The translations under genes and the position numbers were made by a program. A stretch of DNA of 64,000 bases from an uncultured Alphaproteobacteria bacterium (lineage in GTDB: Bacteria > Pseudomonadota > Alphaproteobacteria > RF32 > CAG-239). Numbering within the stretch: the first letter of the stretch is position 1; each line of letters begins with the position of its first letter. This document shows positions 1,946-62,914 of the stretch, piece by piece. The stretch lies in the NCBI GenBank assembly GCA_944392255.1, contig CALXVY010000002.1, positions 11,106 to 75,105 of the forward strand, read 5' to 3'. The notes under the pieces are model-generated. The model made no database searches. It was not told where the DNA came from and saw only the letters and a program-made list of their open reading frames with translations.

Positions 1946-1952
1946 GTAAGAC

Positions 1953-2282: not shown

Positions 2283-2288
2283 ACACTC

Positions 2289-2480: not shown

Positions 2481-2499
2481 ATGCCTTATTTTTTAGAGA

Positions 2500-2859: not shown

Positions 2860-2939
2860 AATTATATGTTTTAAAGTTAATAATTTTTATATAGCGCTTA
2901 ACGTAGCATATTTTTTTGTCTCAGGCAAGCACAAAAAAA

Positions 2940-2972
2940 AGGGGCAAGGAAAAATTCCCTTACCCCTTTTTC
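2940..2972 (-). terminator. intrinsic terminator after rplO
   Basis: hairpin GGGGCAAGG...CCTTACCCC preceded by an A-run on plus strand (a T-run on the minus transcript). Confidence 0.5.
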
Positions 2973-2991
2973 AAATTTTTTCTCAGCTGAA

Positions 2992-3447
2992 TTAAGCAAT
3001 AACGTTAACTTTACCGCCTGCTTTTTCAACAGCTGCAATAGCAGCCTTAGAAGCTGAATTTACGCTAATGGTAACATTGCTGGTGATAGCACCGCGAGCC
3101 AACAAACGAACACCGTCGAGCTCTTTGGAGATAACACCGGCTTCCATCAAAGCTTTAACATCAATAGAAGCAGCATTCAATTTACCGGCATCAACAGCTT
3201 TTTGGATAGTATCCAAATTAACAACTGCAAATGTTTTAGCAAAAGGATTTTTGAAACCGCGTTTCGGAAGTCTACGGTAGATAGGCATTTGACCGCCTTC
3301 AAAACCGTTAACAGCAACACCGGAACGAGATTTTTGACCTTTTTGACCGCGACCACCGGTCTTACCGGAACCACTACCGATACCGCGAGCAACACGCTTG
3401 CGAGATTTTCTGGCTCCTTCGTTGTCTCTAATTTCGTTTAATTTCAT
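2992..3447 (-). CDS. rplO: 50S ribosomal protein L15
   Basis: [43 protein letters not shown]... gly-rich L15 signature. Confidence 0.95.
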
Positions 3448-3517
3448 TTTTCTTCACCTTAAACTTTTCAAAATCTTCTGGGAAGCGAGGCTCATCACCT
3501 CGCCCCATAACAGATTT

Positions 3518-3703
3518 TTATTCTTCGACTTTAACGAGGTGAGCCACTTTGCGGATCATACCTCTGATTGACGGAGTATCTTCCAATTCTCTAGTCTTGT
3601 TCATTTTGTTCAAACCCAAACCAATCAAGGTTTTTCTTTGAATTTCGGGACGACCGATAGGACTAGCGATTTGAGTAACTTTAATAGTCTTTTTATTAGC
3701 CAT
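3518..3703 (-). CDS. rpmD: 50S ribosomal protein L30
   Basis: 61 aa, [31 protein letters not shown]... Confidence 0.9.
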
Positions 3704-3705
3704 TA

Positions 3706-4266
3706 TTAAGCCTCCTCAACCATTTTAGCGTTAGAAGAATTTTCGCGGCGGCTAACGATATCGCCAACCTTTTTACCTCTTTTAGCAGCAACCATTCTCG
3801 GAGAGTTGATTGATTCCAAAGCGTTGAAAGTAGCTTTAATCATATTGTAAGGGTTGTTAGAGCCCAATGATTTAGCAACAACGTCTTGAACACCCAAAAC
3901 TTCGAAGATAGCACGCAACGGACCACCGGCAATAACACCGGTACCGGCAGGAGCAGTTCTCAAATAAACTTTACCTGCGCCGAAACGACCGGCAACGTCA
4001 TGGTGGAGAGTTCTGCCCTCGCGGAGAGGAATGCGAACCATATTCTTTTTAGCTTCGTTAGTAGCTTTAGAAATAGCATCTGGAACTTCAGTTGCTTTAC
4101 CTGTGCCGTATCCAACGCGACCTTTTTGGTCACCGACAACGACAACAGCAGCAAAAGACATGTTGCGTCCGCCTTTAACAGTTTTAGCTACGCGGTTAAT
4201 GTGAACCAGTTTTTCAACCAATTCTTCTTTCTTTTCAGCCTTACGACGATCTACAGCTTGTGCCAT
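3706..4266 (-). CDS. rpsE: 30S ribosomal protein S5
   Basis: 186 aa; ...[18 protein letters not shown]... S5 dsRBD/C-terminal domains. Confidence 0.95.
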
Positions 4267-4275
4267 TTAATCCTC

Positions 4276-4647
4276 CTAAAATTTCAGACCAGCTTCACGA
4301 GCTGCGTCAGCTAAAGCTTTTACACGACCGTGATAGATGTAGCCGCCTCTATCGAAGACAACTTCACTAACACCATTCTTAACCGCTCTCTCAGCAACAG
4401 TCTTACCGATGAAGCTAGCAGCTTCGATGGTAGATGTTTTCTTGATGCTGTCGCGAATTTCTTTATCCAAAGTGGAAGCAGAAGCAACAGTAACACCTTT
4501 GGTGTCATCAATGATCTGAGCGTAGATGTGCTTACCGCTGCGAAATACAGACAATCTCATCTTTCCATTCGCAGCTTTTTTCAAAGCAGCACGAACGCGG
4601 TTTTTTCTTTTTTGATTTTTTTCAAACAATTTACTTGGCGTACTCAT
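4276..4647 (-). CDS. rplR: 50S ribosomal protein L18
   Basis: 123 aa; ...[18 protein letters not shown]... Confidence 0.95.
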
Positions 4648-4658
4648 TTGATTAATCC

Positions 4659-5198
4659 TTATTTCTTCTTGCCTTCTTTACGACGGACATATTCGCCAAC
4701 ATATCTAACACCTTTACCTTTGTACGGTTCCGGAGATCTGTAATCGCGAATTTCCGAAGCAACTTGACCAACCAATTGCTTATCTGCACCAAATACGGAG
4801 ATTTGGGTCGGAGATGCACAAGTAATTTTGATGCCTTCAGGAATTGCAAAGTCAATATCGTGAGAAAAACCTAAAGACAAAACCAATTTTTTAGTGCCTT
4901 CAACACGAGCTTTGTAACCAACGCCGATAAGTTCCATTTCTTTAGTAAAGCCTTCGCTAACACCTTTAACCATGGTGTTGATGCGAGCACGAGTAGTGCC
5001 CCAAAGAGTGCGAGCTTGTTTAGAAGTTGACAACGGAGTTACAACAACAGTGTTGTTTTCCAATTTAGCGACTACGTGGCTGTCATCATAAGCAAAGCTT
5101 AATTCGCCCAATTTACCACTTGCTTTAACAACGTTACCGTTGATAGCAACATTAACGCCATTAGGGATAATAACAGGATATTTTCCAACTCTAGACAT
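4659..5198 (-). CDS. rplF: 50S ribosomal protein L6
   Basis: 179 aa; [21 protein letters not shown]... Confidence 0.95.
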
Positions 5199-5210
5199 AT
5201 CAGTTTCTCC

Positions 5211-5609
5211 CTAAAATACTTGACAAAGAACTTCACCGCCAACGTTAGCTTTACGAGCTTCGTGATCACTCATAACACCAGAAGGTGTAGAGATGATAGA
5301 AATTCCTAAGCCGTTGTAAACTCTCGGCAAGTCTTTAACGCTAGAATATACGCGACGACCCGGAGTAGAAACGCGGTAAATTTCGGTTATAACAGATGTA
5401 CCTTCATGGTACTTTAATTTAATGTGAAGTTCATCAACACCGGCTCTAACATTAACCTTTTCATATCCGGCAATGTAGCCTTCTCTTTTGAGAACTTCCA
5501 ACACATTTTCACGCAAGCGAGAAGCCGGAGATACGACCTCAGATTTTTTCGCTCTTTGTGCGTTTCTAATGCGTGTGAGCATATCGCCCAAAGGATCACT
5601 CATAGACAT
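5211..5609 (-). CDS. rpsH: 30S ribosomal protein S8
   Basis: 132 aa; [22 protein letters not shown]... Confidence 0.95.
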
Positions 5610-5620
5610 TCTCGATTCTC

Positions 5621-5926
5621 CTACCAGCTTGATTTAACTAAACCTGGGATTTCACCTCTGCCGGCTTTCTCGCGCAATTCAACACGAGCAATACCGAACT
5701 TGCGGTAATATCCGCGAGAACGACCGGTCAATTTGCAGCGGTTTCTAAAACGAATTGCTGCAGAGTTACGCGGCAGTTCTGCCAATTTCAAAGTCGCTTG
5801 GAATCTCTCCTCAGGAGAAACAGTTTTATCCATAACGATCTCTTTGAGTTTCAAACGGCGTGAAGCGAACTTCTTAGCCATTTTAGCTCTTTTCAAGTTT
5901 CTGTAGATTTCACTTGTTTTTGCCAT
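5621..5926 (-). CDS. rpsN: 30S ribosomal protein S14
   Basis: 101 aa; [31 protein letters not shown]... C-term ...[18 protein letters not shown]. Confidence 0.9.
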
Positions 5927-5940
5927 AGTTCAGTCTCCAC

Positions 5941-6480
5941 TTATTTCTTGCACGGCAAGTTAAATGAGGTCAGAAGAGCTTTAGCTTCTTCATCGGTCTT
6001 TGCGGTAGTGCAGATGCAAACATCCAAACCGTGAATATTTTCAACTTTATCATAGTTGATTTCCGGGAAGATGATTTGTTCTTTAATACCGAAAGCAAAA
6101 TTTCCGCGACCGTCAAAGTTTTTACCGGTAATACCGTGGAAGTCACGAACACGCGGCAAAGCCATATTGATCAATCTTTCCAAGAACTCATACATTCTGT
6201 CAGAACGAAGAGTTACTTTGCAGCCGATAGGCATACCTTCTCTGAGCTTAAAAGTAGCAATTGATTTACGAGCATGAGTCATAACAGGTTTTTGACCAGC
6301 AATCAATGCCAATTCTTCAGCAGCGGTGTTGAGTTTTTTCTTATCGGTAACAGCGTCGCCGACACCAACGTTCAACACAATCTTTGTCAACTTCGGAATC
6401 TCATGTGGGTTTTTGTAACCGAATTTTTCCACAAGAGATTTCTTAATGACCTCGTTATAAAGTTTTTCAAAATTAGTCAT
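5941..6480 (-). CDS. rplE: 50S ribosomal protein L5
   Basis: 179 aa; ...[16 protein letters not shown]...[10 protein letters not shown]... Confidence 0.95.
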
Positions 6481-6491
6481 TAGATTTTCCC

Positions 6492-6809
6492 CTATTTATC
6501 GATTACTTCACCGGATTTACGAGCGACGCGTACTTTTTTGCCATCAACTTCTTTGTAACCAACTTTAGTTGCTTTTCCAGATTTCGGATCAACAATGGCT
6601 ACGTTAGAAACGTTGATAGGAGCTTCTTTCGTAACAATGCCGCCAGGAGTAGTTTGGCTGGGTTTGGTATGTCTTTTAACCAAGTTGATACCTTGAACAA
6701 CCACTTTACTCTCTTTAGGCAAAGCTTTTACGACTTCACCGGTTTTGCCTTTGTCTTCACCAGACAAAACAATAACCTGATCGCCTTTTTTAATTTTCAT
6801 CTTAGGCAT
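6492..6809 (-). CDS. rplX: 50S ribosomal protein L24
   Basis: 105 aa; [26 protein letters not shown]... KOW motif. Confidence 0.9.
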
Positions 6810-6810
6810 A

Positions 6811-7179
6811 TTATAAAACCTCCGGTGCTAACGAAATTATTTTCATAAATTTCTTTGCACGCAATTCTCTGGTAACGGGGCCAAAGATACGAGTACCGAT
6901 AGGCTCGCCGTCCTTATTAATCAGAACTGCAGCGTTTTTGTCAAAACGGATAACACTACCGTCTTTACGTCTGATGTCAGAAGCTGTTCTAACAATCACA
7001 GCTTTTTGCACATCACCTTTCTTTACGCGTCCTTTTGGGATAGCGTTTGTAACAGAAACTACAATCACATCGCCGACCGAAGCATGCATTCTCTTGGAAC
7101 CGCCAAGAACTTTAATGCACTGCACCTGACGAGCACCTGAGTTATCAGCTACATCAAGGTTGGTTTGCATCTGTATCAT
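6811..7179 (-). CDS. rplN: 50S ribosomal protein L14
   Basis: 122 aa; [28 protein letters not shown]... Confidence 0.95.
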
Positions 7180-7198
7180 TTTTTAATTCCTTCTTTTT

Positions 7199-7435
7199 CT
7201 AGGCGTTATTAACGATTACAGTCCAAGTTTTTGTCTTAGAATATGGTCTTGATTCCTCAATAGAAACCACATCACCGACTTTGAACTGATTGTTTTCATC
7301 GTGTGCAGCATACTTTTTGCTTTTACGAATGAATTTTTTGTAAACAGGGTGCATAACTTGGCGTTCAACTTTAACGACAACTGTTTTGTCCTGTTTATCG
7401 CTTACAACAACACCTTGAAGAATTCTTTTAGGCAT
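7199..7435 (-). CDS. rpsQ: 30S ribosomal protein S17
   Basis: 78 aa; [25 protein letters not shown]... Confidence 0.9.
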
Positions 7436-33895: not shown

Positions 33896-35128
33896 TTAAG
33901 CCATCTGTTGAGCATTCAATCGTTTTTTAAGAGCAATATATCGGTTCATATCAAACGATTGTATTCTTTCTTTGTTAACTGATTGTGGCGCAATTGAGCT
34001 TGTTTGTCTACCTCTAAGTTCATTTATCCTCTTAATAACATCAGATTTAGACTGAGATTGTATATTTTTCTGTAAAATTTCTTCGCTCATACTATAATCA
34101 GGAACAAAAGATTTGACCCCGAGCTTATACAAAATCTTATCGGGAACATCTTTGTCACGACGTCTATACTCGAGCACAGCCCCACAAACATTACGTCGGA
34201 TTTGTTCTTCTTCGGTGAAATACCCATGATTTTGAGAAGTATTAGCCACCTTAACCAAGTTCATCATTTCCATATGCTTAGCATAGGCCTCTGACAAGGC
34301 ATTATCAGGATGAATTCTATTAAGGAAGCGCAAATCATTAGCCCGACGCAACATATATTCTTGATAACGTTGCTTACGAAGCTGGTTAGCTTTATCCATC
34401 TCATCTACAGCAGCCATAGCAATCAAGGTTTGAGCCATCATCAAACTTGCTTTATATTCCATATCAGAATAAAGAGTTTTATTATCCTCTTGCTCAATCA
34501 TACGCTGATATTCTAAAGCCAAACGTTTTTCCTCTTCTTTGGCCTGACGTTCAGCCTCAGCTTCTTCGCGGCTTTTAGTTGAAGCAATAACCGCGCTGCG
34601 AAGTTGCTGAAGTTTAGCAAGTTTTAACTGCAAAAAATCAAGACGTTCTTTAGCTTTTGAAGAATTAGATGCGGCATACAAAGCCATATAGACACGCATT
34701 TCAGTTTCACGCTCATCCAAAGTCGACAAGAAATTTTCACGAAAATCTATATCGGCATCCGTTATATTGCCATCAGTCATATCATGAATGACTTTTCCTG
34801 CATCTTCAATCCAATAAAAATATTCATTCTGGGGAGCAACTTCATTTTCAATTGATTGGATGGAATTAGCCACAATAAAAGCAAAATCTTCCAAATTTTT
34901 ATCAAGAGGAAGGTTTTCTCCATCAACGACACGTTTTAATACTTCTTTAGCTTTTTCTTTTTCCGGACCTTTCAAATCGGGACGAGCACGCTCAACTCCT
35001 TTTTCAATAATGTCCATTTTTTTCTTTTCTTTTTCAGGATTTTTTCGAGTAAGCTCTGCTTTTGAGAGCTCTTTTTTATCTTTATCCTCGGAAGAAGAAA
35101 TGCCTCTAAGTTCCTTAATATCAACCAT
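33896..35128 (-). CDS. hypothetical highly charged coiled-coil protein (410 aa)
   Basis: K/E-rich N-terminus (KEKKKM, KEKAKE), central ...REEAEAERQAKEEEKRLALEYQRMIEQ...; no TM, signal peptide or known catalytic motif recognised. Confidence 0.5.
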   Translation of the reverse strand: MVDIKELRGISSSEDKDKKELSKAELTRKNPEKEKKKMDIIEKGVERARPDLKGPEKEKAKEVLKRVVDGENLPLDKNLEDFAFIVANSIQSIENEVAPQNEYFYWIEDAGKVIHDMTDGNITDADIDFRENFLSTLDERETEMRVYMALYAASNSSKAKERLDFLQLKLAKLQQLRSAVIASTKSREEAEAERQAKEEEKRLALEYQRMIEQEDNKTLYSDMEYKASLMMAQTLIAMAAVDEMDKANQLRKQRYQEYMLRRANDLRFLNRIHPDNALSEAYAKHMEMMNLVKVANTSQNHGYFTEEEQIRRNVCGAVLEYRRRDKDVPDKILYKLGVKSFVPDYSMSEEILQKNIQSQSKSDVIKRINELRGRQTSSIAPQSVNKERIQSFDMNRYIALKKRLNAQQMA

Positions 35129-42068: not shown

Positions 42069-42225
42069 ACTTAAAAATATTAAATTAAACAATAATAAAT
42101 AAACTTTTTTTACTATATAAACAATGATTTTCTTGTCAACACCAAAATTTAGACAAAAAATATTTACGAACAACAAAAAATGGTGTATGATACATTCATA
42201 TATAAACAACAAGAAGGACAATGAC

Positions 42226-44265
42226 ATGGCAAAAAAAAAGCAAAAACGCAAAGTTGCTAAAGAGTTTGAAGTACATTCTTCTGAATTTCCTCAAAAACAA
42301 GTAAAGAAACAAAAAACCCCTACTTTAACCTTGGAAGATCGCGTCAATAATGAATTTGATGAAATGGCTGTTTCTGTAGCCTATGGCAAAAACGAAGGAG
42401 AAAAACTCAAAGCCATCCGCTCTTTCAATACCTTTATCGACAACAATGTTCCTGCCGAAGAGAAAGACAAAATCAAAGCTCTGGTTGAAGAAAGATTAAA
42501 AGATAACGACTTTATCTATGGTAGTGAATTTATCGATTTAACTCCTCTCAAAGAATATACTGATCGTTTGTTTGAAGAACGCAAAGTTGCTAAAGAGTTT
42601 GAACCTCATTCTTCTAAAAAGGTTAAAGAAACAAAAAAATCAAAGAAAAAAGAAACATCGGAAAATCTTGCTGATGTCGTTAAATCAGTTAAAGATAATG
42701 CCAATAATACGCTTGGCGGAATTTTGGGCGGATTAGCAGAAAATGCGGCTAAAAGAGAAGAACATAAAATGCCTCGTCCAAATCCAAATAAAGAAGCAGA
42801 AAAAGCTCTTCACCAAGCCTTACTCGATGGCATTGCTAATGAAGAAATCAAAAACATCAAAGGTTACAGCAATGATGATTTGAAAAAAATCTTAGAATAT
42901 CATGACAAACTTCTTTATGCCGATGATGGTAACGGTACGGCTTTAGAAAGTTTATATGATAACAGCATTGCCGATTTGAAAAAATTTGCCGAAGGTAAAG
43001 TATCTATTGATAATGATAGCTACGAAACAATGATGCAATTCATCAAAACTTTTGGTACTAACTCTAAAGGGCAATTACTTCCGGAAGGCAAAGCTGCTTA
43101 TGATAAATTGATGAATTTAATGGCAGAACAACAAAAACAAAAAATTCTTGCCAACAAAGAAAAATATCAAGCTCATGCTGAAATCGTCAAGAATGTTCAA
43201 AATCATGCCAATAATACATTAGCTGGAATTTTGGGCGGACTAGCTGCCAATGCGGCTAAAAGAGAAAAGGCTGCTACAAACAGCGCCACCTCAACAACTA
43301 CGCCGAAAACAACTAAAGAAGAAGCTCCGACAGAATTTGCTATCGGCGACGAAGAAGCTAAAGACACAACAAAAGTAATCTTGAAGGAAAAACAACATCA
43401 GGAACCCCAAAAAAACGAAAACAAAACATATATTCCGGTAACTCCAACTTCAGCGACAACCAATAAAAATTCATTTACACCAGAAAACACAACCAATGAA
43501 ACCCCCAAACCGCAACCGGAGGAAAAGAAAAAAGGTTTCTGGGGCAAGACAAAAGATTGGCTTAAGGATAAATGGAAAAAAATTGCCGCTATTACTGCAT
43601 TAGCTGCTGCCGCTTTGCTTTTACCTAAAAGTTGCGCCGGCAATGGTAATAATGAAAATAAAAACCAAGACAGAGATATACCGGAAAAAACCACAGTCAT
43701 TCCGTCAGATTCTATTGCTAAGCCAACTCCTGCAGATACTTTACAGTTGACCCCGCAAGACTTAAGCAATGGTTTCTATCTGGAACGTTCTGCCGGCTTC
43801 AAGGGTGAACAAGAAGGTATCAGTTTCAAAGATGCTGAAAAAGCCAATAAACAAGACCTCTTGACCATCAAACGTCTAATGGCTCAAAAGAAACTGGATA
43901 TAAACAAATTCAAACGTCATACAACCTCACAAAATAAAGAACCGATTACGATAACGGAAATTGCATATAAAATGCGTGTTGTAATGCAAAACTTCCCCGG
44001 TTCTAAAATTGCAAAAAGTATGGAAAATATCTTTTCCGGCAAAGTTAGCGAACGTGATCAAAACAACCTCTATGGAGCTTTTACGCATATCAATGATTAT
44101 GGTCAATTAATTGACCGTAATGGCAAACCAATAAACACCATAGATATGGAAAAAGAAATCAGTGCTGAACGTTTTGGAAAAGGTAGTGAAGAATATGGCA
44201 CGGAAGGCACCGATAATAACTTTATTCAAGTTTTGAAAAAGCATAAAGATATCTTAAGTAAATAA
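42226..44265 (+). CDS. hypothetical bitopic membrane protein (679 aa) with internal sequence repeats
   Basis: duplicated blocks RKVAKEFE(V/P)HSS and ANNTL(G/A)GILGGLA(E/A)NAAKRE(E/K); single TM helix IAAITALAAAALLLP at about residue 470; K/T/P-rich linker; no known domain recognised. Confidence 0.55.
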   Translation: MAKKKQKRKVAKEFEVHSSEFPQKQVKKQKTPTLTLEDRVNNEFDEMAVSVAYGKNEGEKLKAIRSFNTFIDNNVPAEEKDKIKALVEERLKDNDFIYGSEFIDLTPLKEYTDRLFEERKVAKEFEPHSSKKVKETKKSKKKETSENLADVVKSVKDNANNTLGGILGGLAENAAKREEHKMPRPNPNKEAEKALHQALLDGIANEEIKNIKGYSNDDLKKILEYHDKLLYADDGNGTALESLYDNSIADLKKFAEGKVSIDNDSYETMMQFIKTFGTNSKGQLLPEGKAAYDKLMNLMAEQQKQKILANKEKYQAHAEIVKNVQNHANNTLAGILGGLAANAAKREKAATNSATSTTTPKTTKEEAPTEFAIGDEEAKDTTKVILKEKQHQEPQKNENKTYIPVTPTSATTNKNSFTPENTTNETPKPQPEEKKKGFWGKTKDWLKDKWKKIAAITALAAAALLLPKSCAGNGNNENKNQDRDIPEKTTVIPSDSIAKPTPADTLQLTPQDLSNGFYLERSAGFKGEQEGISFKDAEKANKQDLLTIKRLMAQKKLDINKFKRHTTSQNKEPITITEIAYKMRVVMQNFPGSKIAKSMENIFSGKVSERDQNNLYGAFTHINDYGQLIDRNGKPINTIDMEKEISAERFGKGSEEYGTEGTDNNFIQVLKKHKDILSK

Positions 44266-44323: not shown

Positions 44324-44848
44324 TTATTGCGAAACGATAGTCGGTTGAATATTCGGTTCTGTTACTGTTGAAACATCATTTATCGGATAAGCCTGAACAT
44401 CAATGATATCATTTCCCGATTGATAAAGTTCATTTTCAATACGTGTACTCGGTTGAGGTAAAGCCAATTCTCCAGGTTGCAAAATACCTTGCTGACTTTC
44501 TTGTTGAATAGGTTTAATTTGCGGCGTTGCCGGCATAGGATTATTAGAGCTCTCAGAGGGCTTTTCTTGAGAAGGAAGATTGTTTTCCGGAGCCAAATTT
44601 TGAGAGGATTGAGAAACATCTTCTTGCGTATCTAAAGGACTTCCCAACGGATTAGGGGCATCTGCACTTTGTTCTACAAAGTCCGAATTTACACCACCGC
44701 TCGCATTAGCTGCCGCACCAAAAACTTCTGTCGGTGTAGAATTAATCTGCATATCTTCTTGCATCGTTACAGTATCTGTTATGTTTTGAGCCAAAGCACT
44801 TGTACTCAGCAAAACCAAAGCAGATGTACATAATAAAATTTTTTTCAT
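44324..44848 (-). CDS. hypothetical secreted low-complexity (S/Q/P/N-rich) protein
   Basis: signal peptide MKKILLCTSALVLLSTSALAQ; remainder compositionally biased. Confidence 0.5.
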   Translation of the reverse strand: MKKILLCTSALVLLSTSALAQNITDTVTMQEDMQINSTPTEVFGAAANASGGVNSDFVEQSADAPNPLGSPLDTQEDVSQSSQNLAPENNLPSQEKPSESSNNPMPATPQIKPIQQESQQGILQPGELALPQPSTRIENELYQSGNDIIDVQAYPINDVSTVTEPNIQPTIVSQ

Positions 44849-49701: not shown

Positions 49702-52700
49702 TTAAACTTCTTCGTTCAACAATTCGACGTTCAAGCACAAAGATTTGATTTCTTTAACCAAAACGTTAAAGGATTCCGGAACACCGGCTTCAAATCCGTC
49801 ATCACCGCGAACGATAGCTTCGTAAACTTTAGTACGGCCGTTAACATCATCGGACTTAACGGTGAGCATTTCTTGCAAGGTGTAAGCAGCACCATAAGCT
49901 TGAAGAGCCCAAACTTCCATTTCACCGAAACGTTGACCACCAAACTGAGCCTTACCTCCCAAAGGTTGTTGAGTAACCAAAGAGTACGGACCAACAGAAC
50001 GAGCGTGCATTTTCTCGTCAACAATGTGGTGAAGTTTAAGCATGTAGATAATACCAACGGTAACCTTACGGTCAAATTTTTCACCGGTACGACCATCATA
50101 CAAGTCAATTTGACCAGAAGTCGGCAAACCAGCTAAAGACAACATAGAGTTAATATCATCATTGGAAGCACCATCAAATACCGGAGTAGCCATTGGCACA
50201 CCTTTCTTGAGGTTACGAACCATTTCTTCTAACTCTTGTTCGTTCAAAGACTTAATGTCCTCTTTATATTGTTTTTCACCATAAACGGCTTTGAGTTCAT
50301 CATTAAGTTCTTGAATGGTCTTTTCACCTTTCTTGTATTGGTCCATCATATCGTTGAGTTGTTTACCAAGTTCCTTAGCGGCCCAACCCAAGTGAGTTTC
50401 CAAAATTTGACCAACGTTCATACGTGAAGGCACACCCAACGGGTTCAACACGATATCAACCGGAGTACCATCTTCCATGTAAGGCATATCTTGCAAAGGC
50501 AATACACGAGAAATTGTACCTTTGTTACCATGACGTCCGGCAATTTTATCACCGGTTTGAATTTTACGTTTGGTAGCAATGAAGACTTTAACCATCTTCA
50601 ATACACCAGGTAACAAATCATCACCGCGTTGTACCTTTTCTACCTTATTTTCGAAGTGTTTTTGAACTTTCTCAACACGAGCATCAAAAGCAGCGATTAA
50701 TTCTTCTACCTTAGACATAATATCTTCGTCTTTAACAACGATTTTACGCCATTGAGAAGAAGGAATGCTGTTCAAAGCTTCTTCAGTCAATTTGGTTTTC
50801 TTTGCAATACCTTTCGGAGCATCAACAACTTCATGACCGATAAACATAGCTTTCAAACGATGTTCAAAGCTTGCTTTAATGATGTTGATTTCATCATCAC
50901 GGTCTTTGGCCAAAGCAGAAATTTCTTCTTGTTCAATAGACAAAGCACGTTCGTCTTTCTCAACACCACGACGAGAGAAGACGTGAACATCAACAACAAT
51001 ACCTTCAATACCTGGTTGGACACGCAAAGAAGTATCGCGAACATCACTGGCTTTTTCACCAAAGATAGCGCGCAAGAGTTTTTCTTCCGGAGTAACCGGA
51101 GATTCGCCCTTCGGAGTAACCTTACCAACCAAGATATCACCGGCTTTAACTTCAGCACCGATATAAACGATACCAGCTTCATCAAGGTTACGCAAAGCTT
51201 CTTCACCAACGTTCGGAATATCACGTGTGATTTCTTCTTGTCCGAGTTTAGTATCACGAGCCATAACTTCAAATTCTTCAATATGAAGAGAAGTGAAGAC
51301 ATCGTCACGAGAAATACGCTCAGAAAGCAAAATAGCATCCTCGTAGTTCAAACCGTTCCAAGGCATGAAGGCAACGAGTACGTTTTTACCCAAAGCGAGT
51401 TCACCCATTTCGGTACAAGGACCATCAGCCATGATATCTCCGGCTTTAACCTTATCACCAACCTTAACCAAAGGAACTTGGTTAATGCAGGTATTTTGGT
51501 TAGAACGACGGAATTTTTGCAATTTGTAGATATCAACACCGGCATCGGTTACGTTTTCACCTTCGGAAGTAACCACGATACGAGTAGCATCAACCTGAGA
51601 AACAACACCGTCACGTTTAGCAACAACTGTAGCACCTGAATCTTTAGCAACAGTGCCTTCAACACCGGTACCAACCAACGGAGCTTCGGAACGGAGCAAT
51701 GGAACAGCTTGACGTTGCATGTTTGCACCCATCAAAGCACGGTTCGCATCGTCATTTTCCAAGAACGGAATCAAAGCCGTAGCAACTGATACCAATTGTT
51801 TTGGAGAAACGTCAATGAAGTCGATTTCTTCAGGTTTAGCAAATTCAAATTCACCGGCTTTACGGCAAGCAATCAAATCATTTTCGAAATGACCATCTTC
51901 TTTAACTTTTGCGTTAGCTTCAGCGATTTTGAACTTACCTTCTTCATTAGCAGAAAGGTAAACCACATCTTTGGTAACCACGCCGTTAACAACTTTACGA
52001 TACGGACATTCAATGAAGCCATATTTGTTGATACGAGCATAAGTAGACAAAGAGTTAATCAAACCAATGTTCGGACCTTCAGGAGTTTCAATCGGGCAGA
52101 TACGACCATAGTGTGTCGGGTGCACGTCGCGGACTTCAAAGCCAGCGCGGTCACGGCTCAAACCACCGGGTCCTAATGCAGACAAACGACGTTTGTGTGT
52201 AATTTCAGACAACGGGTTGTTCTGATCCATAAATTGAGACAATTGAGAAGAACCGAAGAACTCTCTGATAACAGAAGCAATCGGTTTAGCGTTAACCAAA
52301 TCTTGTGGTTTTACATTGTTCAAAACTTCGGAAGACATTCTTTCGCGAATAGCTCTTTCCATACGGAGCAAGCCCATGCGATATTGGTTTTCCATCAATT
52401 CGCCAACGGAACGAACACGACGGTTGCCCAAGTGGTCAATATCGTCAACTTCGCCTTTACCATCGCGGAGTTCAACCAAGTGTTTAACAATGCGCAAAAT
52501 ATCATCTTTACGCAAAACGCGGCAAGTATCCGGAGCTTCATCAAACGGAATATCCAAAGCGGCGTTCATTTTAACACGACCAACGGAAGACAAGTCATAA
52601 CGTTCGTTATCAAAGAACAATCCGTTAAAGAGTTGATCAGCCGTATCATATGTAGGTGGTTCACCCGGACGCATAACACGATAAATATCGAGCAAAGCTT

Positions 52701-53874
52701 CTTCACGGCATGTATTTTTATCTGTTGCCAAAGTATTGCGGATATAAGGTCCAACATTAACCCCATCAATAAATAAGGTTTTAAATTCTTTAACTTTGGC
52801 AGCGCTCAATTTATCCAAAACTTCTTGAGTAATTTCATCACCGGCTTCGGCAATAATTTCACCTGTTTTGCTATCAACAACGTTGTTAGCCAAGAATTTT
52901 CCGATAATTTGTTCGTTAGAAACTTTATAAAATTCCAAACCGTTATCTACGAGTTTTTGAGCCATACGCGGAGCAAGTTTTTTACCTTTTTCCAATACAA
53001 CTTCACCGGATTTGGCATCAATCAAATCATAATCAAATTTAACGCCCTTCATACGTTCGGCATCAAATTTAACTTTCCAGCCTTTTTTATCGGCAACATG
53101 CAAAATGGCATCATAGAAGTAATTTAAGATTTCTTCTTTATCCATACCTTTAATTTCGGTACGCTCAATCTCTTTGCCTTCTTTAGCAAGTTTGGCAATT
53201 TTTTCTTCTGTTTCTTTAGAATATAAAGAATAAAGAATTGAAGAAATCGGCAATTTACGGCGACGGTCAATACGTGCATACATCAAATCTTTGGCATCAA
53301 ATTCAAAATCGAGCCAAGAACCGCGATAAGGAATAACGCGTGCGGCAAACAAATATTTACCGGAAGAAACGGTTTTACCTTTATCATGGTCAAAGAACAC
53401 ACCAGGAGAACGGTGCATTTGAGAAACAACGACACGTTCAGTACCGTTGCAGATAAATGTACCTTTATCTGTCATCAACGGAATATCGCCCATATAAACA
53501 TCTTGTTCTTTAATGTCATGAATAGATTTTGCACCGGTAGCTTCATCGGTATCCCAAACAACCAAACGCAAAGTTGCTTTAACGGGAGCAGCATAAGTCA
53601 TATCACGTTTGATACATTCATCAACGTCATATTTAGGCTCTTCGAGTTCATACTTAACAAACTCCAACTCGCCGTTACCGGAAAAATCTTTAATTGGGAA
53701 AATTGACTTGAAAACTTCTTCCAGACCAAATTCGCAGGGTTCTGCCCCTGGAGCCTGGATAAAGCTGTCATAAGAACCTTTTTGAACTTCGATTAAGCTC
53801 GGCATATCAGCAACAGCATCAATTCTGCCGAAACTTCTTCTTACACGTTTTTTGCTCGTATAAGATTTCAACAT
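49702..53874 (-). CDS. rpoB: DNA-directed RNA polymerase subunit beta
   Basis: 1390 aa; conserved beta-subunit blocks throughout. Confidence 0.97.
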
Positions 53875-54232
53875 TGTGCTTTAATCCTTAGGTTATGATT
53901 CTGCGACAATACTGGCGGAAAACCGCACCCCGACCGCAGAAAGTTATGTAACAAAAATCGATTTTTAAGAGTGAATCGCCCCAAACCATTGATTTAAAAA
54001 TCCCCTTGAACGCGATTCGCAAAATAATAAATTTTTAAAATTCGTCTATTTATAATCCTTGAGTCTAAAATTGCAAGAGTTTTTATCAAAAAAGAGTCAA
54101 GTTTTTTAATTTTTTTGCACAACAATATTTCTTAAAAGAGTCAGTAAGATTCACTTTCTGCTTGTCAGCGATTCGCTTATTGATTTTTCATCATTTTTTA
54201 AAAAAATTATTTTTTTGTCAAAAGAGGCGCAC
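53875..54232 (-). promoter_or_regulatory. rpoB upstream/leader region with GANTC-type motifs
   Basis: TTGAGTCTAAAATT (54059), AGAGTCAAG (54095), AGAGTCAGT (54140), GAATCGC/GATTCGC repeats (53978, 54013, 54166). Confidence 0.35.
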
Positions 54233-54272
54233 AAAAAAAAGCGTATGAACCTGCTTTTTAGATTCATACGCT
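54233..54272 (-). terminator. intrinsic terminator after the ankyrin gene
   Basis: A-run then AGCGTATGAACCTGCTTTTTAGATTCATACGCT. Confidence 0.55.
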
Positions 54273-54293
54273 TTCATCAAACTTCAATTACAT

Positions 54294-54779
54294 TCAAATA
54301 GTCGCGTGTTCTTTTTTTTCAGCATACCATCGAGCATCATGACCGTAATTATCTTTGGTATCAGCCTTCAGCCCGCTTTTCTTTAAGAGCGCATCTACGA
54401 TATTTTTAAATCCGAACCAAACTGCATGTATAAAAGCTGTTCTTCCGGAATCATCTTGTGCATTGATATTAATATTTGGCTTTTGCAACAAGGCGTTTAC
54501 AACTGCTATATCGCCTTTAACGCAAGCCCAAATAAGAGCTGTGTTCATCTGCAAATCAGCAAAATTATAATCAATACTTGGATGATTTAATAAGTAAAGA
54601 GCAATTTGAGTATACCCTTTATGAATAGCCCAAATAAGAGCCGTTTTTCCATTATGACCAACATAATTAATGTCGAGTTCTGGCACTGTCTCTACAAAAT
54701 ACTTAACCAGTTCGAACTCTCCTTTTTTCACAGCATCAATAAAGTGCTTGTGAATTTGATTTAATAATACTTTATCCAT
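54294..54779 (-). CDS. ankyrin-repeat protein (161 aa, about 4 ANK repeats)
   Basis: GKTALIWAIHKGYTQIALYLLNHP... / NTALIWACVKGDIAVVNALLQ... / GRTAFIHAVWFGFKNIVDALLK... ANK consensus (TALhxAxxxGhxxhVxxLL). Confidence 0.85.
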   Translation of the reverse strand: MDKVLLNQIHKHFIDAVKKGEFELVKYFVETVPELDINYVGHNGKTALIWAIHKGYTQIALYLLNHPSIDYNFADLQMNTALIWACVKGDIAVVNALLQKPNININAQDDSGRTAFIHAVWFGFKNIVDALLKKSGLKADTKDNYGHDARWYAEKKEHATI

Positions 54780-54858
54780 AGCTACATAAAAATTAAAATA
54801 TAGGGTGAAAATATATTTTTTTCTTAAAAAGTCAAGTTTTATTTAAAACAGAATAAGG

Positions 54859-56169
54859 TTATAAACTATAAGAATCTTTTTTGTTTAAAATCATCTTTTC
54901 GGTGGGTGTCAACTCTTTCACGTCAGACTTAACAACAAATTTTTTGGCAACTTTTTTAGGCACTGAACGTCCAGATAAAATCCTTAACAAATTCACAGCA
55001 TCTTTGCTCTGATTCCCTGGCATTTTTTCACTTATATCTTTGGCGCTATCAGGTGTCATACCAGTATAATACAAAGTCAAATCATCTGCCTTCTTTTGAA
55101 CTTCCGGAGATAATGGGACAATATTTTCAGAAAGATATTTTGAAAAATTTTCAACACTTATACCTTTTTGTTTCAAAATCTCATTATCTTTAAGACCATC
55201 AAAAATTAAATCAATTCTTTTAGCAAATTCTTTGTCGTTACCAATAGCCAAACTTGCAGCATCATATTTATCACACTTTGTTTCCATAGAGCCCACTATC
55301 TGATTAGAATATATAGACTGATAATTATTTTGCCACATCTGGCAAACTCCTTGTACCATTTGCTTATTAAAATCATTTTTATTCATCTTTTCTTTTTGAA
55401 AAAGCAAATCTTTATAAAAAGCAAAATTTTTAAACTCATTTTTTTCAAAAAGCTGTAATGCTTCTTGTTGTGGCACGCCTTGCTTAATCTTATCTTGATA
55501 AGCCTTGTCTAGCAACAAAAGCTCAGCCATCTTAGAAGATATTTCATCATATTGATTGAGCATTCCATATTGAGCAACAGACAATCCCGGAGCATAAATA
55601 TTATTTTTATCATTTGTCATATGCTGTACTTCATGGGCTAAAAGAACATTATTCTCAAGTGTATTGACATCATTATAGTTACTCAAAACCTCTTTCACAT
55701 GCTGTACTTTCTTATTCTGTTCATCTAAAGACAAATGTGCATAATTTTGTTCAACATAAGCTTTAATATCTTCATCATTCTCGGTTTGCACATAATTCAT
55801 AGTTACAGTTTTTTCAGAAAAATCATAACTTCCAACGAGTTTATTATCAGCAAATTCATTAAAAGGAATAGTATCCATTTTCACAGAAAAATCCGTTGCA
55901 AAAGCCTCTTTCTGCTCATCATAATAAGACTTCAAATCTTCTTTAACATCACTATAAATATTTCCATGGACAGGCTGCCCATTTATTGAAGTATAGATAT
56001 TATCTCCTTCTAAAACCTCTTGAATAACAGCCTGTTCTATCTTATCTTGCTTTTGTTCTTCTATTTTGGGCTCTGTTTGAGCATAAGCCACTTGCGAAGA
56101 CAAAGCCATACCCACAACAGTTGCCCCGTTTTGTTTCTTAAAAAAATCCTTCAGCTTATCCCAAACCAT
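54859..56169 (-). CDS. hypothetical protein with HExxH motif and possible N-terminal signal peptide (436 aa)
   Basis: ...NNVLLAHEVQHMTND... zincin-like HExxH; N-term MVWDKLKDFFKKQNGATVVGMALSSQVAYAQ hydrophobic stretch ending in AYA. Confidence 0.5.
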   Translation of the reverse strand: MVWDKLKDFFKKQNGATVVGMALSSQVAYAQTEPKIEEQKQDKIEQAVIQEVLEGDNIYTSINGQPVHGNIYSDVKEDLKSYYDEQKEAFATDFSVKMDTIPFNEFADNKLVGSYDFSEKTVTMNYVQTENDEDIKAYVEQNYAHLSLDEQNKKVQHVKEVLSNYNDVNTLENNVLLAHEVQHMTNDKNNIYAPGLSVAQYGMLNQYDEISSKMAELLLLDKAYQDKIKQGVPQQEALQLFEKNEFKNFAFYKDLLFQKEKMNKNDFNKQMVQGVCQMWQNNYQSIYSNQIVGSMETKCDKYDAASLAIGNDKEFAKRIDLIFDGLKDNEILKQKGISVENFSKYLSENIVPLSPEVQKKADDLTLYYTGMTPDSAKDISEKMPGNQSKDAVNLLRILSGRSVPKKVAKKFVVKSDVKELTPTEKMILNKKDSYSL

Positions 56170-56226
56170 TTTATTTTCCTTTTTGCAATTAAAAATATCT
56201 TAGCATAAAAGTCTCAAATGAACAAA

Positions 56227-56252
56227 TAAAAAAGCCTGTCAAAATGACAGGC
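56227..56252 (-). terminator. intrinsic terminator after rplL
   Basis: A-run then AGCCTGTCAAAATGACAGGCT. Confidence 0.6.
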
Positions 56253-56278
56253 TTTTTTCAAAATTTTGAAAGAAGAAA

Positions 56279-56653
56279 TTACTTCAATTCAACTTTAGCA
56301 CCAGCGGCTTCAAGTTTCTTCTTAATTTCTTCAGCTTCAGCTTTAGGAGCACCTTCTTTAACAGTTTTTGGAGCACCATCTACCAAGTCTTTAGCTTCTT
56401 TCAAGCCCAATTGAGTGATAGCACGGATTTCTTTAATAACGTTAATTTTGTTAGCACCAGCGTCAGCCAAGATGATATCGAATTCATCTTTTTCTTCAGC
56501 GGCAGCAGCACCACCAGCAGCACCACCGGCAGCAACAGCAACAGCAGCAGCGGCAGAAACGCCCCATTTTTCTTCTAACATTTTAGACAAGTCAGCAGCT
56601 TCCATAACAGTCAAAGCTGACAATTCATCAACTAATTTGGCTAAATCGGCCAT
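56279..56653 (-). CDS. rplL: 50S ribosomal protein L7/L12
   Basis: 124 aa; Ala-rich hinge [22 protein letters not shown]; C-terminal ...[13 protein letters not shown]. Confidence 0.95.
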
Positions 56654-59123: not shown

Positions 59124-59609
59124 ATGAAGACTAAATCTTCTTACGGTATTGGAAAAATTTTCACTGCCGTAGTCAAGAAAATCAAAAAAGACAAAATCTT
59201 TTTTGACATTAAGCAATTACTTTTTAACGAAGACGGACAAGAAGAAATTACCAGAAAAGCAGCTTTTTCCATAAAGCAAAAGCATTTCAATCCGCACCTG
59301 TTCTTCAAAAAAGAAAAAATTGTTGATGTTCGCGTTGTCAGGTTATTAAATCCGAGAAAAAACGCCTGCTTCTTGGATTATGAAGTTGTTCCTTGTACTC
59401 TTCCCGTAGATGAATACATCAAAGCTCATCCTATCGGCACCATGGTTCAGGGAACGATTGAAACAATTACCGGTGCAACTATGACTATTTGTCTGGCACC
59501 AAACGTTTATGCCGTGACAAAACGTTGCAACCACGCTCACACCGGACAAATCATTGATTGTAAAATTGACAGATTTCACAATCAAAAAATTTCCTTAAGA
59601 GTTTTCTAA
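59124..59609 (+). CDS. hypothetical protein (161 aa) with possible S1/OB-fold-like segments
   Basis: ...HPIGTMVQGTIETITGATMTICLAPNVYAVTK... resembles an S1 RNA-binding motif; weak. Confidence 0.35.
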   Translation: MKTKSSYGIGKIFTAVVKKIKKDKIFFDIKQLLFNEDGQEEITRKAAFSIKQKHFNPHLFFKKEKIVDVRVVRLLNPRKNACFLDYEVVPCTLPVDEYIKAHPIGTMVQGTIETITGATMTICLAPNVYAVTKRCNHAHTGQIIDCKIDRFHNQKISLRVF

Positions 59610-59719
59610 AAAAAATTATTAACCCTAGCCCCCTGATTTATTTCACGGGGCTTAAATTTTGTGGACGAATAGATTTTCTTTTGCTATGCTTTCCAAAATG
59701 ACCCTTTAGAGAGGCTAAA

Positions 59720-61048
59720 ATGAGCAAAAAAATTTATCGCTGTATCGGTATCATGACCGGAAATTCCCTAGATGCCGTTGATGTTGTTTTAACCGAATTT
59801 AATGATAGCCACATCAAAGATATTTGCGGTCTTTCTTTGAGTATTCCCACCTCATTAAGCAACCGTTTCCGCCAACTCAAATTTTTACTCAGCCAAAATA
59901 ATTGTGATATTAATGGCTATTATACCAAAGAAAAAGACAACTTTATATCTCTGCACAATGATTACATCAATCTTGTCGCCCAAACTGTAAATCTCATGCT
60001 CAAAGAAAACAATATCTCTAAAGACAGTATTGATGCCATCGGCTTTCACGGACAAACTTGTGGCCACTGCCCTCCTTCCATTGTCCAAAGCAAAGACCCC
60101 AGCCAAATTTATACCCTTCAAATCGGCTCTGGACAAATGCTTGCAGATTTAACCGGTATTCCTGTTATATATGACTTTCGTTCTGATGATATAATGAATC
60201 TGGGCGAAGGAGCACCTTTAGCACCAATACACAATCAACATATTGCTCAAGACTTAATCAGCAAAAAAATCTTTCCGGTTGCTTTTTGTAATGGCGGTAA
60301 CACCGGAAACATTGCTGTAATTTCACGCAACAAAATCACCGGAAAAGATATTGTAATGGGCTGGGATGTTGGTCCTTTTAATCATTTTATTGATATGCTG
60401 ATGCGCAACGAATTACACCTTCCCTGTGATTTGAATGGTGAAACAGGAAAGAAAGGCAAAATCAACTTCCGCTTATTACGCAAATTATTTGAGAATGCTG
60501 TTCTAACTAATATCCGAGAAAACTTTATTACTATGCCACCTCCAAAATCTTCTGACCCGGCATGGTATATTTTTATTCCCGAATTAATGGATAAGAGTAT
60601 TGCATTTGAAGACAGACTAAGAACTGTTGAATTTTTTAGTGCTTATATCATGGTCTATAATTTAAGCTTTATTCCTGAAGACATAGAATCTCCCAAATAC
60701 TTTTTATTCTTTGGTGGCGGCTGGAAAAACCCGATTGTTCTAAATGATTTTAAAAATTTACTCAATGGCGATGCCGAAGTATTACCCGAGCATCAAGAAA
60801 TTTTTGACAAACTCTTCACCCCAGAAGCAATAGTCCGCTGGTCCGATGACTATGGTTATAACGGCAAATATATGGAAGCCCGTATTTTTGCCGATATGGC
60901 GAAATGCTTCTTAACCAAAGAACCTTTTTCTTTTCCGGAAACCACCGGCTGCACCAAGCCCACCATTGGCGGAATTATGACCAAACCCAATGGTAAGGAT
61001 ACAAGGCTCTGGTCGCGCGCCGCACCGGGATGGGCTGAAAAAAAATAA
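59720..61048 (+). CDS. anmK: anhydro-N-acetylmuramic acid kinase-like (AnmK family, extended 442 aa)
   Basis: N-term IGIMTGNSLDAVDVVL, ...GFHGQT..., ...LQIGSG..., ...DFRSDDIMNLGEGAPLAPIHNQ... match AnmK hallmark blocks. Confidence 0.65.
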   Translation: MSKKIYRCIGIMTGNSLDAVDVVLTEFNDSHIKDICGLSLSIPTSLSNRFRQLKFLLSQNNCDINGYYTKEKDNFISLHNDYINLVAQTVNLMLKENNISKDSIDAIGFHGQTCGHCPPSIVQSKDPSQIYTLQIGSGQMLADLTGIPVIYDFRSDDIMNLGEGAPLAPIHNQHIAQDLISKKIFPVAFCNGGNTGNIAVISRNKITGKDIVMGWDVGPFNHFIDMLMRNELHLPCDLNGETGKKGKINFRLLRKLFENAVLTNIRENFITMPPPKSSDPAWYIFIPELMDKSIAFEDRLRTVEFFSAYIMVYNLSFIPEDIESPKYFLFFGGGWKNPIVLNDFKNLLNGDAEVLPEHQEIFDKLFTPEAIVRWSDDYGYNGKYMEARIFADMAKCFLTKEPFSFPETTGCTKPTIGGIMTKPNGKDTRLWSRAAPGWAEKK

Positions 61049-62069: not shown

Positions 62070-62516
62070 ATGGAAAATATCATCAAATTAATTAAAGCTC
62101 ACGCTTATGAAAAAGCCAAAGAAGCTGCCAAACAAGGCGTTAAGCCAAGCATAAAAGCTCAGCTTAAACTGTTTCACATGTTAAATACATCTCTACTTAC
62201 CAAAGAAGCCCTGATAATCCGAATAATATATTATCACGAGGGTTTCATGTATGACATTAAGCACCTTGTAGATGGAATAGAAAGAGCTACAATTGAAAGC
62301 AAAAATTGGGCCAAAATAACTTCTCTGATAGAAGATGCTCCGTTGCAGACGAACAATCTTATTTTACTCATAGCAACAATACACAAACATAAGGAAGAAG
62401 AAAAAGTACGCAAAATACTTTTCAAATATGACCAACTTTACAAATTGAGTAGCATTTCATGGCCGGAAAGTATTAAAACAACTTGCCAAAACATGATTGC
62501 TGAAATTGAACCCTAA
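62070..62516 (+). CDS. hypothetical protein (148 aa)
   Basis: ORF between secE and tRNA-Trp on the opposite strand, followed by a terminator; no motif recognised. Confidence 0.4.
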   Translation: MENIIKLIKAHAYEKAKEAAKQGVKPSIKAQLKLFHMLNTSLLTKEALIIRIIYYHEGFMYDIKHLVDGIERATIESKNWAKITSLIEDAPLQTNNLILLIATIHKHKEEEKVRKILFKYDQLYKLSSISWPESIKTTCQNMIAEIEP

Positions 62517-62735: not shown

Positions 62736-62811
62736 TTGGCAGGGGCAGTAAGATTCGAACTCACGACATTCGGTTTTGGAGACCGACGCTCTACCAACTG
62801 AGCTATACCCC
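62736..62811 (-). tRNA. trpT: tRNA-Trp (anticodon CCA), 3' CCA encoded
   Basis: minus-strand AGGGGTATAGCTCAGTTGGTAGAGCGTCGGTCTCCAAAACCGAATGTCGTGAGTTCGAATCTCACTGCCCCTGCCA; 7-bp acceptor stem, GTTCGAATC T-loop, anticodon loop CTCCAAA; classic tuf-tRNATrp-secE-nusG context. Confidence 0.9.
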
Positions 62812-62914
62812 TATCAAATCTTGCGTATTATTAGATACACAACTATTCACTATAAATCAAGTCTTTTTTACACAACAAAACAAAAAATTTTCATTTTTTA
62901 GCCCAAGAGAAAGA

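Follow-up and report, generated by a model that had tools for sequence, protein, structure and literature searches.

The 64,000-nucleotide stretch analyzed here (hereafter the window; part of contig CALXVY010000002.1 from an uncultured alphaproteobacterium) carries two genes between rplL and rpoB, the first encoding a 436-residue protein with a HEVQH motif and the second a 161-residue ankyrin-repeat protein. On balance, we lean towards regarding this pair as a lineage-specific accessory insertion at the rplKAJL/rpoBC junction in a narrow clade of uncultured gut Alphaproteobacteria, encoding an exported gluzincin-like hydrolase together with an ankyrin protein. An earlier note on this DNA had told of a secreted, horizontally acquired, highly expressed host-interaction module, a story that as a whole is only partly supported.

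A two-gene insertion between rplL and rpoB

The four open reading frames (ORFs) concerned were found on the minus strand just where the earlier note had placed them, in the order rplL (the final gene of the rplKAJL unit), the HExxH gene, the ankyrin gene and rpoB, with terminators bracketing the inserted pair. Contigs of relatives that were compared with the window are designated by L numbers; they are metagenome contigs and genome bins labelled uncultured Alphaproteobacteria, several of them from gut samples. Copies identical to the window sequence, or nearly so, are found on metagenome contigs.

56279..56653, minus strand: rplL (ribosomal protein L7/L12); ORF, with Pfam Ribosomal_L12 on the identical gene in L001 and L013
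54859..56169, minus strand: gene for the 436-residue HExxH protein; ORF
54294..54779, minus strand: gene for the 161-residue ankyrin protein; ORF
49702..53874, minus strand: rpoB; ORF, with Pfam RNA_pol_Rpb2 domains on the identical gene in L001

The distance from rplL to rpoB in the window is 2,404 bp. A 79-nt gap, in which no terminator was found, separates the HExxH and ankyrin genes, and a 362-nt spacer lies between the ankyrin-gene terminator and rpoB. No paralogues were found in the window.

Metagenome contigs of relatives were collected via RplL, and 64 of these were informative about the junction. The gap between rplL and rpoB measured 500 bp or less in 57 of the 64 and 679-1,173 bp in three, while in four contigs rpoB was absent within 3.4-9 kb of rplL; the median gap on the 60 contigs with both genes was 269 bp. 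Tight linkage is the rule, and about one contig in ten departs from it. The adjacency had been called near-universal, which is somewhat too strong given these departures and those in the literature (PMC8046335). Among relatives, L022 (RpoB 88% identical to that of the window) is insert-free, with a spacer of 403 bp, and L021 has a 1.2-kb gap. Synteny across these relatives, with 57 of 64 junctions tight and L022 lacking the insert, shows the two genes to be derived and lineage-restricted: two genes peculiar to this lineage have truly been inserted at a junction that is tight as a rule. One further contig, L020, was left unused: its RplL is 96% but its RpoB only 50% identical to that of the window, its rplK, rplA and rplJ identities exactly equal those of L022, and the assembly is probably chimeric.

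The insertion belongs to a known class of events, junction insertion in the conserved ribosomal/RNA-polymerase cluster. A study of how this cluster becomes disconnected (PMC8046335) identifies small insertions as the usual first step; it counts rsmC, downstream of rplL, within the rpoBC operon of Bacilli, and describes nrdHEF inserted between rplL and rsmC in Lactobacillaceae. The likeness lies in the few genes that come to stand between two units of the conserved cluster. However, that study covers Gammaproteobacteria and Bacilli only, whereas here the lineage is alphaproteobacterial and the cargo consists of two orphan genes.

Predicted transcription signals around the insertion

The following elements, all on the minus strand, were located around the insertion.

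56228..56258, minus strand: intrinsic terminator after rplL, a perfect 14-bp stem with a U tract (-18.9 kcal/mol, z -7.0 versus shuffled sequences)
56197..56205, minus strand: candidate extended -10-like element TGCTAAGAT upstream of the HExxH gene, from comparison of upstream regions
54808..54835, minus strand: promoter-like site upstream of the ankyrin gene, TTGACT-16-TATTTT, with the AACTTGACT box kept in L007
54237..54275, minus strand: intrinsic terminator after the ankyrin gene, a 16-bp stem with U8 (-20.3 kcal/mol, z -6.3 versus shuffled sequences)
54062..54100, minus strand: predicted rpoB promoter block, box AAAAACTTGACTC followed by TTGATA-16-TAGACT, conserved in the window, L007, L008 and the insert-free L022
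53900..53940, minus strand: hairpin in the rpoB 5′ untranslated region (5′UTR) just upstream of the ribosome-binding site (-17.6 kcal/mol, z -2.5)

Both terminators reported at the outset were found; however, rather than standing on either side of each gene, they flank the pair jointly. The rplL terminator is ancestral, with an equivalent hairpin present in L022. The spacer of that insert-free relative consists, in order, of a strong rplL terminator, about 120 nt, the sequence AAAAACTTGACTC...TTGCGA-17-TAGACT and a leader running to the rpoB start. In the window, the proximal 230 nt or so upstream of rpoB (54104-53875) are 89-97% identical to those of relatives and can be aligned to the spacer of L022, so that the leader of about 360 bp that had been described as new is, over some 230 nt, ancestral. 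Sub-threshold Rfam matches to small RNAs and leaders at 56154-56334 turned out to be merely the rplL terminator hairpin.

Because the insert lies between the ancestral rplL terminator and the ancestral rpoB promoter and 5′UTR, it would fall outside the rpoB transcription unit. We infer that neither flanking transcription unit includes the inserted genes, which occupy an insulated spacer, and that rpoB has not been rewired. The idea that they were placed in the most strongly expressed transcription unit is not supported, since they stand between the strong ancestral rplL terminator and the rpoB promoter, and a promoter-like element precedes each of them. For the HExxH gene this is a TGnTAnnAT extended -10 located 35-45 nt upstream; it is kept before homologues in other genomic contexts, where it often follows directly on the terminator of another gene. 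In the E. coli type of rplKAJL-rpoBC arrangement, as we take it to be, rpoB is transcribed mainly by read-through from rplL past an attenuator, with no dedicated promoter. Here the sequence points the other way, as rpoB follows a strong terminator and a conserved promoter-like block, and does so in the insert-free relative too.

These features provide the basis for a model of the insertion. The rplL terminator, followed some 120 nt further on by a promoter dedicated to rpoB and by a structured 5′UTR, would already have insulated the junction, and the two genes would have landed in the spacer between that terminator and that promoter. Their transcription would start at the promoter-like elements before each gene and stop at the terminator after the ankyrin gene, which would leave the regulation of rpoB intact.

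Two further features of the region deserve mention. The rpoB 5′UTR hairpin has no Rfam match, and 7 of its 15 pairs covary while staying paired across five genomes with and without the insertion; it could act as a processing or autoregulatory element. In addition, a 15-nt box, AAAACTTGACT(C/T)TTT, is common to the rpoB (54091-54105) and ankyrin-gene (54826-54840) promoter regions at 93% identity, and could reflect either convergence on an A-rich upstream element with a consensus -35 or a small duplication.

History of the inserted genes

In a sliding comparison with the sister species L007, nucleotide identity is 94-100% through rplJ and rplL to 56266, falls to 30-70% from 56265 to about 54105, and returns to 89-97% from 54104. 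The inserted segment and the relatives compared for the HExxH and ankyrin genes are as follows (identities are to the window).

54105..56265, minus strand: inserted, fast-diverging segment, delimited by sliding nucleotide identity to L007
L102: RpoB 98.8%, HExxH protein 82%, ankyrin protein 87%; order rplL-HExxH-ankyrin-rpoB, with rplL and rpoB partial at the contig ends
L007: RpoB 96.9%, HExxH protein 54%, ankyrin protein 74%; order rplL-HExxH-ankyrin-rpoB
L100: RpoB not on the contig, HExxH protein 52%, ankyrin protein 80%; a 2.2-kb contig with the HExxH-ankyrin pair only
L008: RpoB 87.5%, HExxH protein 51%, no ankyrin gene; HExxH gene within 6.8 kb of extra ORFs between rplL and rpoB

The sharp fall in identity at the borders prompted us to consider a hypervariable cassette. 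This was ruled out: between the window and L007, the HExxH gene has a synonymous divergence (dS) of 1.58, equal to that of the neighboring ordinary gene for AnmK (anhydro-MurNAc kinase) at 1.62, and it is the flanks that are slow, with 0.17 for rplL and 0.41 for rpoB. Identity falls at the borders because the flanking genes are slowly evolving and codon-biased at synonymous sites.

Horizontal acquisition, as suggested in the earlier note, finds no backing in these data. The G+C content at third codon positions (GC3) is native (0.26 and 0.28 for the two inserted genes versus 0.26 for rplL and nusG), dS equals that of AnmK, and the family is also found at other loci in related gut Alphaproteobacteria. 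No integrase, transposase or other mobility gene was found with the insert, no long repeats flank it (short ones occur at chance level only), and searches for plasmid or phage matches were negative. In view of the native GC3 and of these negative results, recent horizontal transfer and a mobile element were both discarded. Searches with PADLOC and PHROGs returned nothing for the HExxH protein and repeat-level matches alone for the ankyrin protein, and an anti-phage defence role or a phage origin was set aside on those grounds.

For the unsaturated pair of the window and L102, the ratio of nonsynonymous to synonymous divergence (dN/dS) is 0.155 for the HExxH gene, 0.057 for the ankyrin gene and 0.042 for rpoB. 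The highest regional value in the HExxH protein, 0.43, belongs to its basic C-terminal tail, the fastest-evolving part, and positive selection on the gene was ruled out by these values. Together, the sequence data indicate that both genes are vertically inherited within the clade, under purifying selection. The identity matrix of the HExxH proteins is tree-like, and the more distant homologues (31-45% identity) are found elsewhere, beside ldh, murI-like or serine dehydratase genes, with no ankyrin gene near them. The most economical account has a clade-native gene inserted once, in the ancestor of these few species, the ankyrin gene having joined by the time the lineages of the window, L102, L100 and L007 split. 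Among contigs whose RplL is identical, the HExxH protein has 100%, 99% and 55% identity; the last of these contigs probably belongs to the L007 species, because its RplJ identity to the window (98.1%) is the same as that of L007.

The rplL-rpoB site acts as a soft spot, as seen from the extra cargo of L008, the 1.2-kb gap of L021 and an element in L015. In the sister species L008, the same junction (381-7209 of that contig) is filled by 6.8 kb in which some ten ORFs, distributed over both strands, encode an ASCH-domain protein, a small protein of the membrane, two lipoproteins of which one has WG repeats, a helix-turn-helix protein and several orphans besides the HExxH protein. L015, a strain of the window's species, has a 163-nt GC-rich element (1391-1553) immediately after the rplL terminator; it contains two short palindromes and a tandem 25-mer, is bounded by TTTAT on both sides, and occurs neither in the window nor in any other locus retrieved. 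A low-coverage (2.4x) contig of the window's species, L016 (2086-3204), has an HExxH gene with a stop at codon 13 and an in-frame deletion of 24 residues (234-257), and is either a strain-specific pseudogene or an assembly error; with such a stop, deletion and coverage, dN/dS values from it are meaningless and were discarded.

The 436-residue protein and its family

The features of the HExxH protein that matter most for its function are the following.

55621..55635, minus strand: HEVQH motif, H179/E180/H183 (residues 179-183), invariant in 11 close and 94 diverse homologues; predicted helix 171-188
55543..55545, minus strand: codon of E209, candidate third metal ligand, invariant in 94 sequences; predicted helix 198-229
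56077..56169, minus strand: predicted Sec-type signal peptide, residues 1-31, cleavage after AYA; read by eye from the sequence

A word-indexed search of 5.8 billion proteins returned 11 relatives of the protein, and an exhaustive profile search of 1.8 billion cluster representatives returned 129. About 30 of the latter are full-length short forms, and about 100 share only residues ~170-295. In these long forms, mostly of 400-850 residues, the shared region lies near the N-terminus and there is no signal peptide. One orthologue occurs on 173 contigs; the family is prevalent in uncultured gut Alphaproteobacteria, and all its members are labelled "hypothetical protein". On L012 (3598-8133), two long-form paralogues of about 750 residues stand in tandem, with HEQKH near the N-terminus and no signal peptide; the same contig carries MlaA/MlaC and rubrerythrin genes.

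The HEVQH motif is present as first described, and every homologue keeps HExxH unchanged, as it does a glutamate further downstream. Across the 94 diverse sequences, with a mean column identity of 10%, the only invariant columns are H179, E180, H183, E209, W279 and Y287. The spacing HExxH-x24-[DN]E[IVM][SATG] is fixed in most motif-bearing members among the matches listed, about a dozen of which fail the strict pattern. Judged from sequence, this invariant set is the signature expected of an HExxH+Glu (gluzincin) catalytic metal site. AlphaFold models are confident, with a predicted local distance difference test score (pLDDT) of 80 over the full chain and of 86 within the core. The chain is laid out as a disordered linker to about residue 46, an alpha/beta and helical core (47-345), a three-helix region (355-400) and a basic tail, and in the model HExxH and E209 lie on consecutive predicted helices that follow a small beta-sheet, an order of elements compatible with a zincin.

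Comparison with the gluzincins (MEROPS clan MA(E): thermolysin-like enzymes, minigluzincins and the M78 ImmA/IrrE type) brings out likenesses in the model as well as differences. As in those enzymes, HExxH is predicted to lie on a helix, with an invariant glutamate 26 residues after the second histidine on the next helix, and a small beta-sheet precedes the active-site helix. An HExxH-Glu spacing of this size is within the range of short gluzincins. In contrast to them, the model has two extra helices between the sheet and the HExxH helix, and its long helical C-terminal part is without a counterpart.

The N-terminus, MVWDKLKDFFKKQNGATVVGMALSSQVAYA|Q, begins with basic residues, to which a short run of hydrophobic ones and then AYA|Q are joined, and both the A-x-A motif and the pattern of basic and hydrophobic stretches are conserved in 11 homologues. 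The possible signal peptide of the earlier note is, by eye, plausible as a Sec-type signal whose pattern is kept among close homologues; in the model this region is disordered, with pLDDT <50.

Based on these observations, our best guess, which we regard as an evenly balanced proposition, is that the protein is an exported metallohydrolase of a new gluzincin-like family. In such a scheme Sec would export it as a mature protein of about 405 residues, and beyond the cytoplasm it would work as a metallohydrolase of the gluzincin type. A metal ion would be held by H179 and H183 on one predicted helix and by E209 on the next, with E180 as a probable general base, as their invariance suggests.

Several observations weigh against this reading. 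The protein has no match in Pfam or NCBIfam, to a peptidase family or to any other; among 94 relatives there were only single sub-threshold matches, one to DUF6782 and one to a YpfJ-type family (E 4e-4), and profile searches against PDB sequences matched no enzyme. The signal peptide was judged by eye only, and its hydrophobic stretch is short and moderately hydrophobic. HExxH proteins annotated as peptidases can, moreover, be oxygenases (PMC12636437). As to the promoter-like elements assigned to the two genes, a promoter consensus scan of the region yielded as many sites as in shuffled sequences.

Nor did comparison with solved peptidase structures detect any similarity to the zincin fold. 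The metalloprotease designation of the earlier note is not supported, as neither Pfam and NCBIfam nor PDB profile searches nor structure comparison showed a protease fold or family match: HExxH proved invariant in the homologues, but no curated peptidase profile was matched. The nearest approach to a named family is to Pfam PF20573 (DUF6782, putative metallopeptidase), which a distant long-form member, P0068, matches before and around HExxH at E 8.8e-6. However, its 25.6 bits fall short of the gathering score (27), it is the only one among 94 members to match, and the window protein is not matched. A search of the literature for DUF6782 yielded nothing. Apparently, the 436-residue protein represents an undescribed HExxH...E family with a new fold.

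The C-terminal three-helix region (54862-55107, residues 355-436) has a conserved motif, PGxxKKDAxNLLKILSGR. Residues 355-400 match a single SANT domain, that of DNAJC2 (PDB 2m2e), at a marginal E of 5e-4; no other Myb/SANT structure in PDB and no Pfam family was matched, and we treat the SANT-like match as a curiosity.

The ankyrin protein and the gene pair

The four-repeat ankyrin assignment of the earlier note was borne out by profile search. In the 161-residue protein, four repeats are followed by half of another at the C-terminus; Pfam Ank_2 scores 109.8 bits (cut-off 27.3; E 1e-31), and Ank, Ank_3, Ank_4 and Ank_5 likewise exceed their cut-offs. Its N-terminus is hydrophilic, without a signal peptide, and the protein would be a cytoplasmic, four-repeat module for protein binding. 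Orthologues 74-87% identical adjoin the HExxH gene in three other lineages; the ankyrin gene accompanies the HExxH gene in these four lineages and was found in no other context. The two are not an obligate functional pair, because most members of the HExxH family are without an ankyrin gene (L003, L006, L008, L009-L011 and L101 are such loci).

Alternative explanations

An alternative that we consider unlikely is a horizontally acquired host-interaction module, in which a secreted metalloprotease would cleave host or dietary proteins such as mucins or immunoglobulins and the ankyrin protein would be a translocated effector. Relatives do come from gut metagenomes and gut genome bins, a signal peptide accompanies the invariant HExxH...E, and the HExxH protein evolves faster than its housekeeping neighbors (dN/dS 0.155 versus 0.04); yet such a ratio denotes purifying selection rather than an arms race, and no known mucinase or IgA-protease family was matched. 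The ankyrin repeats are eukaryote-like, the C-terminal region of the HExxH protein has its marginal match to a eukaryotic SANT domain, and the best NCBIfam matches of the ankyrin protein are to the Dot/Icm Ank effectors of Legionella and Coxiella (AnkG, AnkF, AnkX). However, these models score 16-43 bits against cut-offs of 500-1400 (at best, 43 bits against 500), only the repeats align and no effector-specific domain is present. A signal peptide is missing from the ankyrin protein, and the ORFs scanned in the window showed no secretion system, type IV included. The native composition and dS, and the lack of mobile-element matches, likewise speak against acquisition from outside. Nothing in this analysis beyond habitat and domain type speaks for a host-effector role, which is speculation.

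A bolder proposal, which we hold to be rather doubtful, would make the protein the founding member of a structurally new HExxH...E superfamily of about 130 clusters at 50% identity, with a short Sec-exported form, a long form of 600-850 residues without a signal peptide and no Pfam or PDB relative, whose short form, with its SANT-like domain and ankyrin neighbor, acts on proteins of the host or of neighboring cells in the gut.

It is quite unlikely, in our judgment, that the HExxH...E protein binds metal without being a peptidase, whether as a non-heme iron oxygenase of the alpha-ketoglutarate-dependent type or as another hydrolase or binding protein of the cell envelope. The absence of peptidase family matches favors this, as does the precedent of oxygenases among annotated peptidases cited above; the system compared was that of the alpha-ketoglutarate-dependent HExxH oxygenases of pathways for peptides made on the ribosome and modified after translation (RiPPs), ChlH and PflC (PDB 8s5f). 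On the other hand, no RiPP precursor, radical S-adenosylmethionine enzyme or other biosynthetic neighbor was present in any context examined, and export of an oxygen- and alpha-ketoglutarate-dependent enzyme from what would be a gut anaerobe (relatives carry rubrerythrin) seems improbable. An oxygenase is the less likely because of the signal peptide, the lack of biosynthetic neighbors and the gut-anaerobe setting.

Least probable, and improbable outright, is a toxin-immunity pair, in which an exported, bacteriocin-like metallopeptidase toxin would be followed directly by its ankyrin immunity protein: the small gene does lie directly downstream in the same orientation with no terminator between, the pair is kept in four lineages, the sister species L008 has a variable islet at the same site, and polymorphic toxin systems, in which Imm-ank immunity proteins and metallopeptidase toxin domains have been catalogued (Zhang et al. 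2012, PMC3482391), offer a precedent for an exported putative peptidase followed by a small ankyrin gene, but here no trafficking or pre-toxin domain (RHS, LXG, HINT or another) is present and there are no repeat domains of the kind found in those systems, the pairing is missing in most family members, the seven entries listed above without an ankyrin gene (L003 to L101) have no other conserved small gene downstream either, PADLOC and PHROGs gave repeat-level matches only, a cytoplasmic immunity protein is ill-suited to a Sec-exported toxin, and the ankyrin protein is far more constrained than the putative toxin, which is not the co-diversification expected of such partners.

Other open junctions and orphan genes in the window

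The rplL-rpoB junction is not the only one to have opened, as at least three junctions of the cluster are open in the window: nusG|rplK, rplL|rpoB and rpoC|rpsL. At nusG|rplK (59124-61048, plus strand), a 161-residue orphan with weak S1-domain similarity and AnmK are encoded on the opposite strand; the orphan is 61% identical in L007, versus 88% for AnmK. Between rpsL-rpsG-fusA-tuf and rpoC (23300-45450) stand about 22 kb of unrelated genes, which include KpsF-like, LptA, RpoN, histidine kinase, FolD, MiaB-like, PhoH, Lnt and TrmB-like genes. The spot between tRNA-Trp and secE (62070-62516, plus strand, and 62737-62812, minus strand), usually compact in this cluster, has an orphan ORF of 148 residues.

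Three further orphans without a Pfam match were seen. One (42124-44265, plus strand) is a lysine-rich protein of 713 residues with a hydrophobic, possibly membrane-spanning stretch, as read by eye; another (44324-44848, minus strand), directly downstream of rpoC, has 174 residues, a classic signal peptide and a P/S/Q-rich body. The third (33896-35128, minus strand; 410 residues) starts with MVDIKELRG and ends with INELRGRQ, and its termini echo the [DE]LRG N-termini of some HExxH family members.

Significance

The locus offers a clean, datable example of a breach in the most conserved gene cluster of bacteria. Its entry point is a spacer that a terminator and a promoter would already have insulated; at the same site a sister species carries other cargo, and one strain has a small repeat element. 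Real as it is, the insertion is of an ordinary kind, and the weight of the finding is on the protein family, not on its location. The HExxH family is the more useful lead, with six invariant positions, a confident predicted fold and no structural or sequence neighbor. If the protein is an exported peptidase, it would define a new zincin family and provide a handle on the extracellular activities of little-known gut bacteria.

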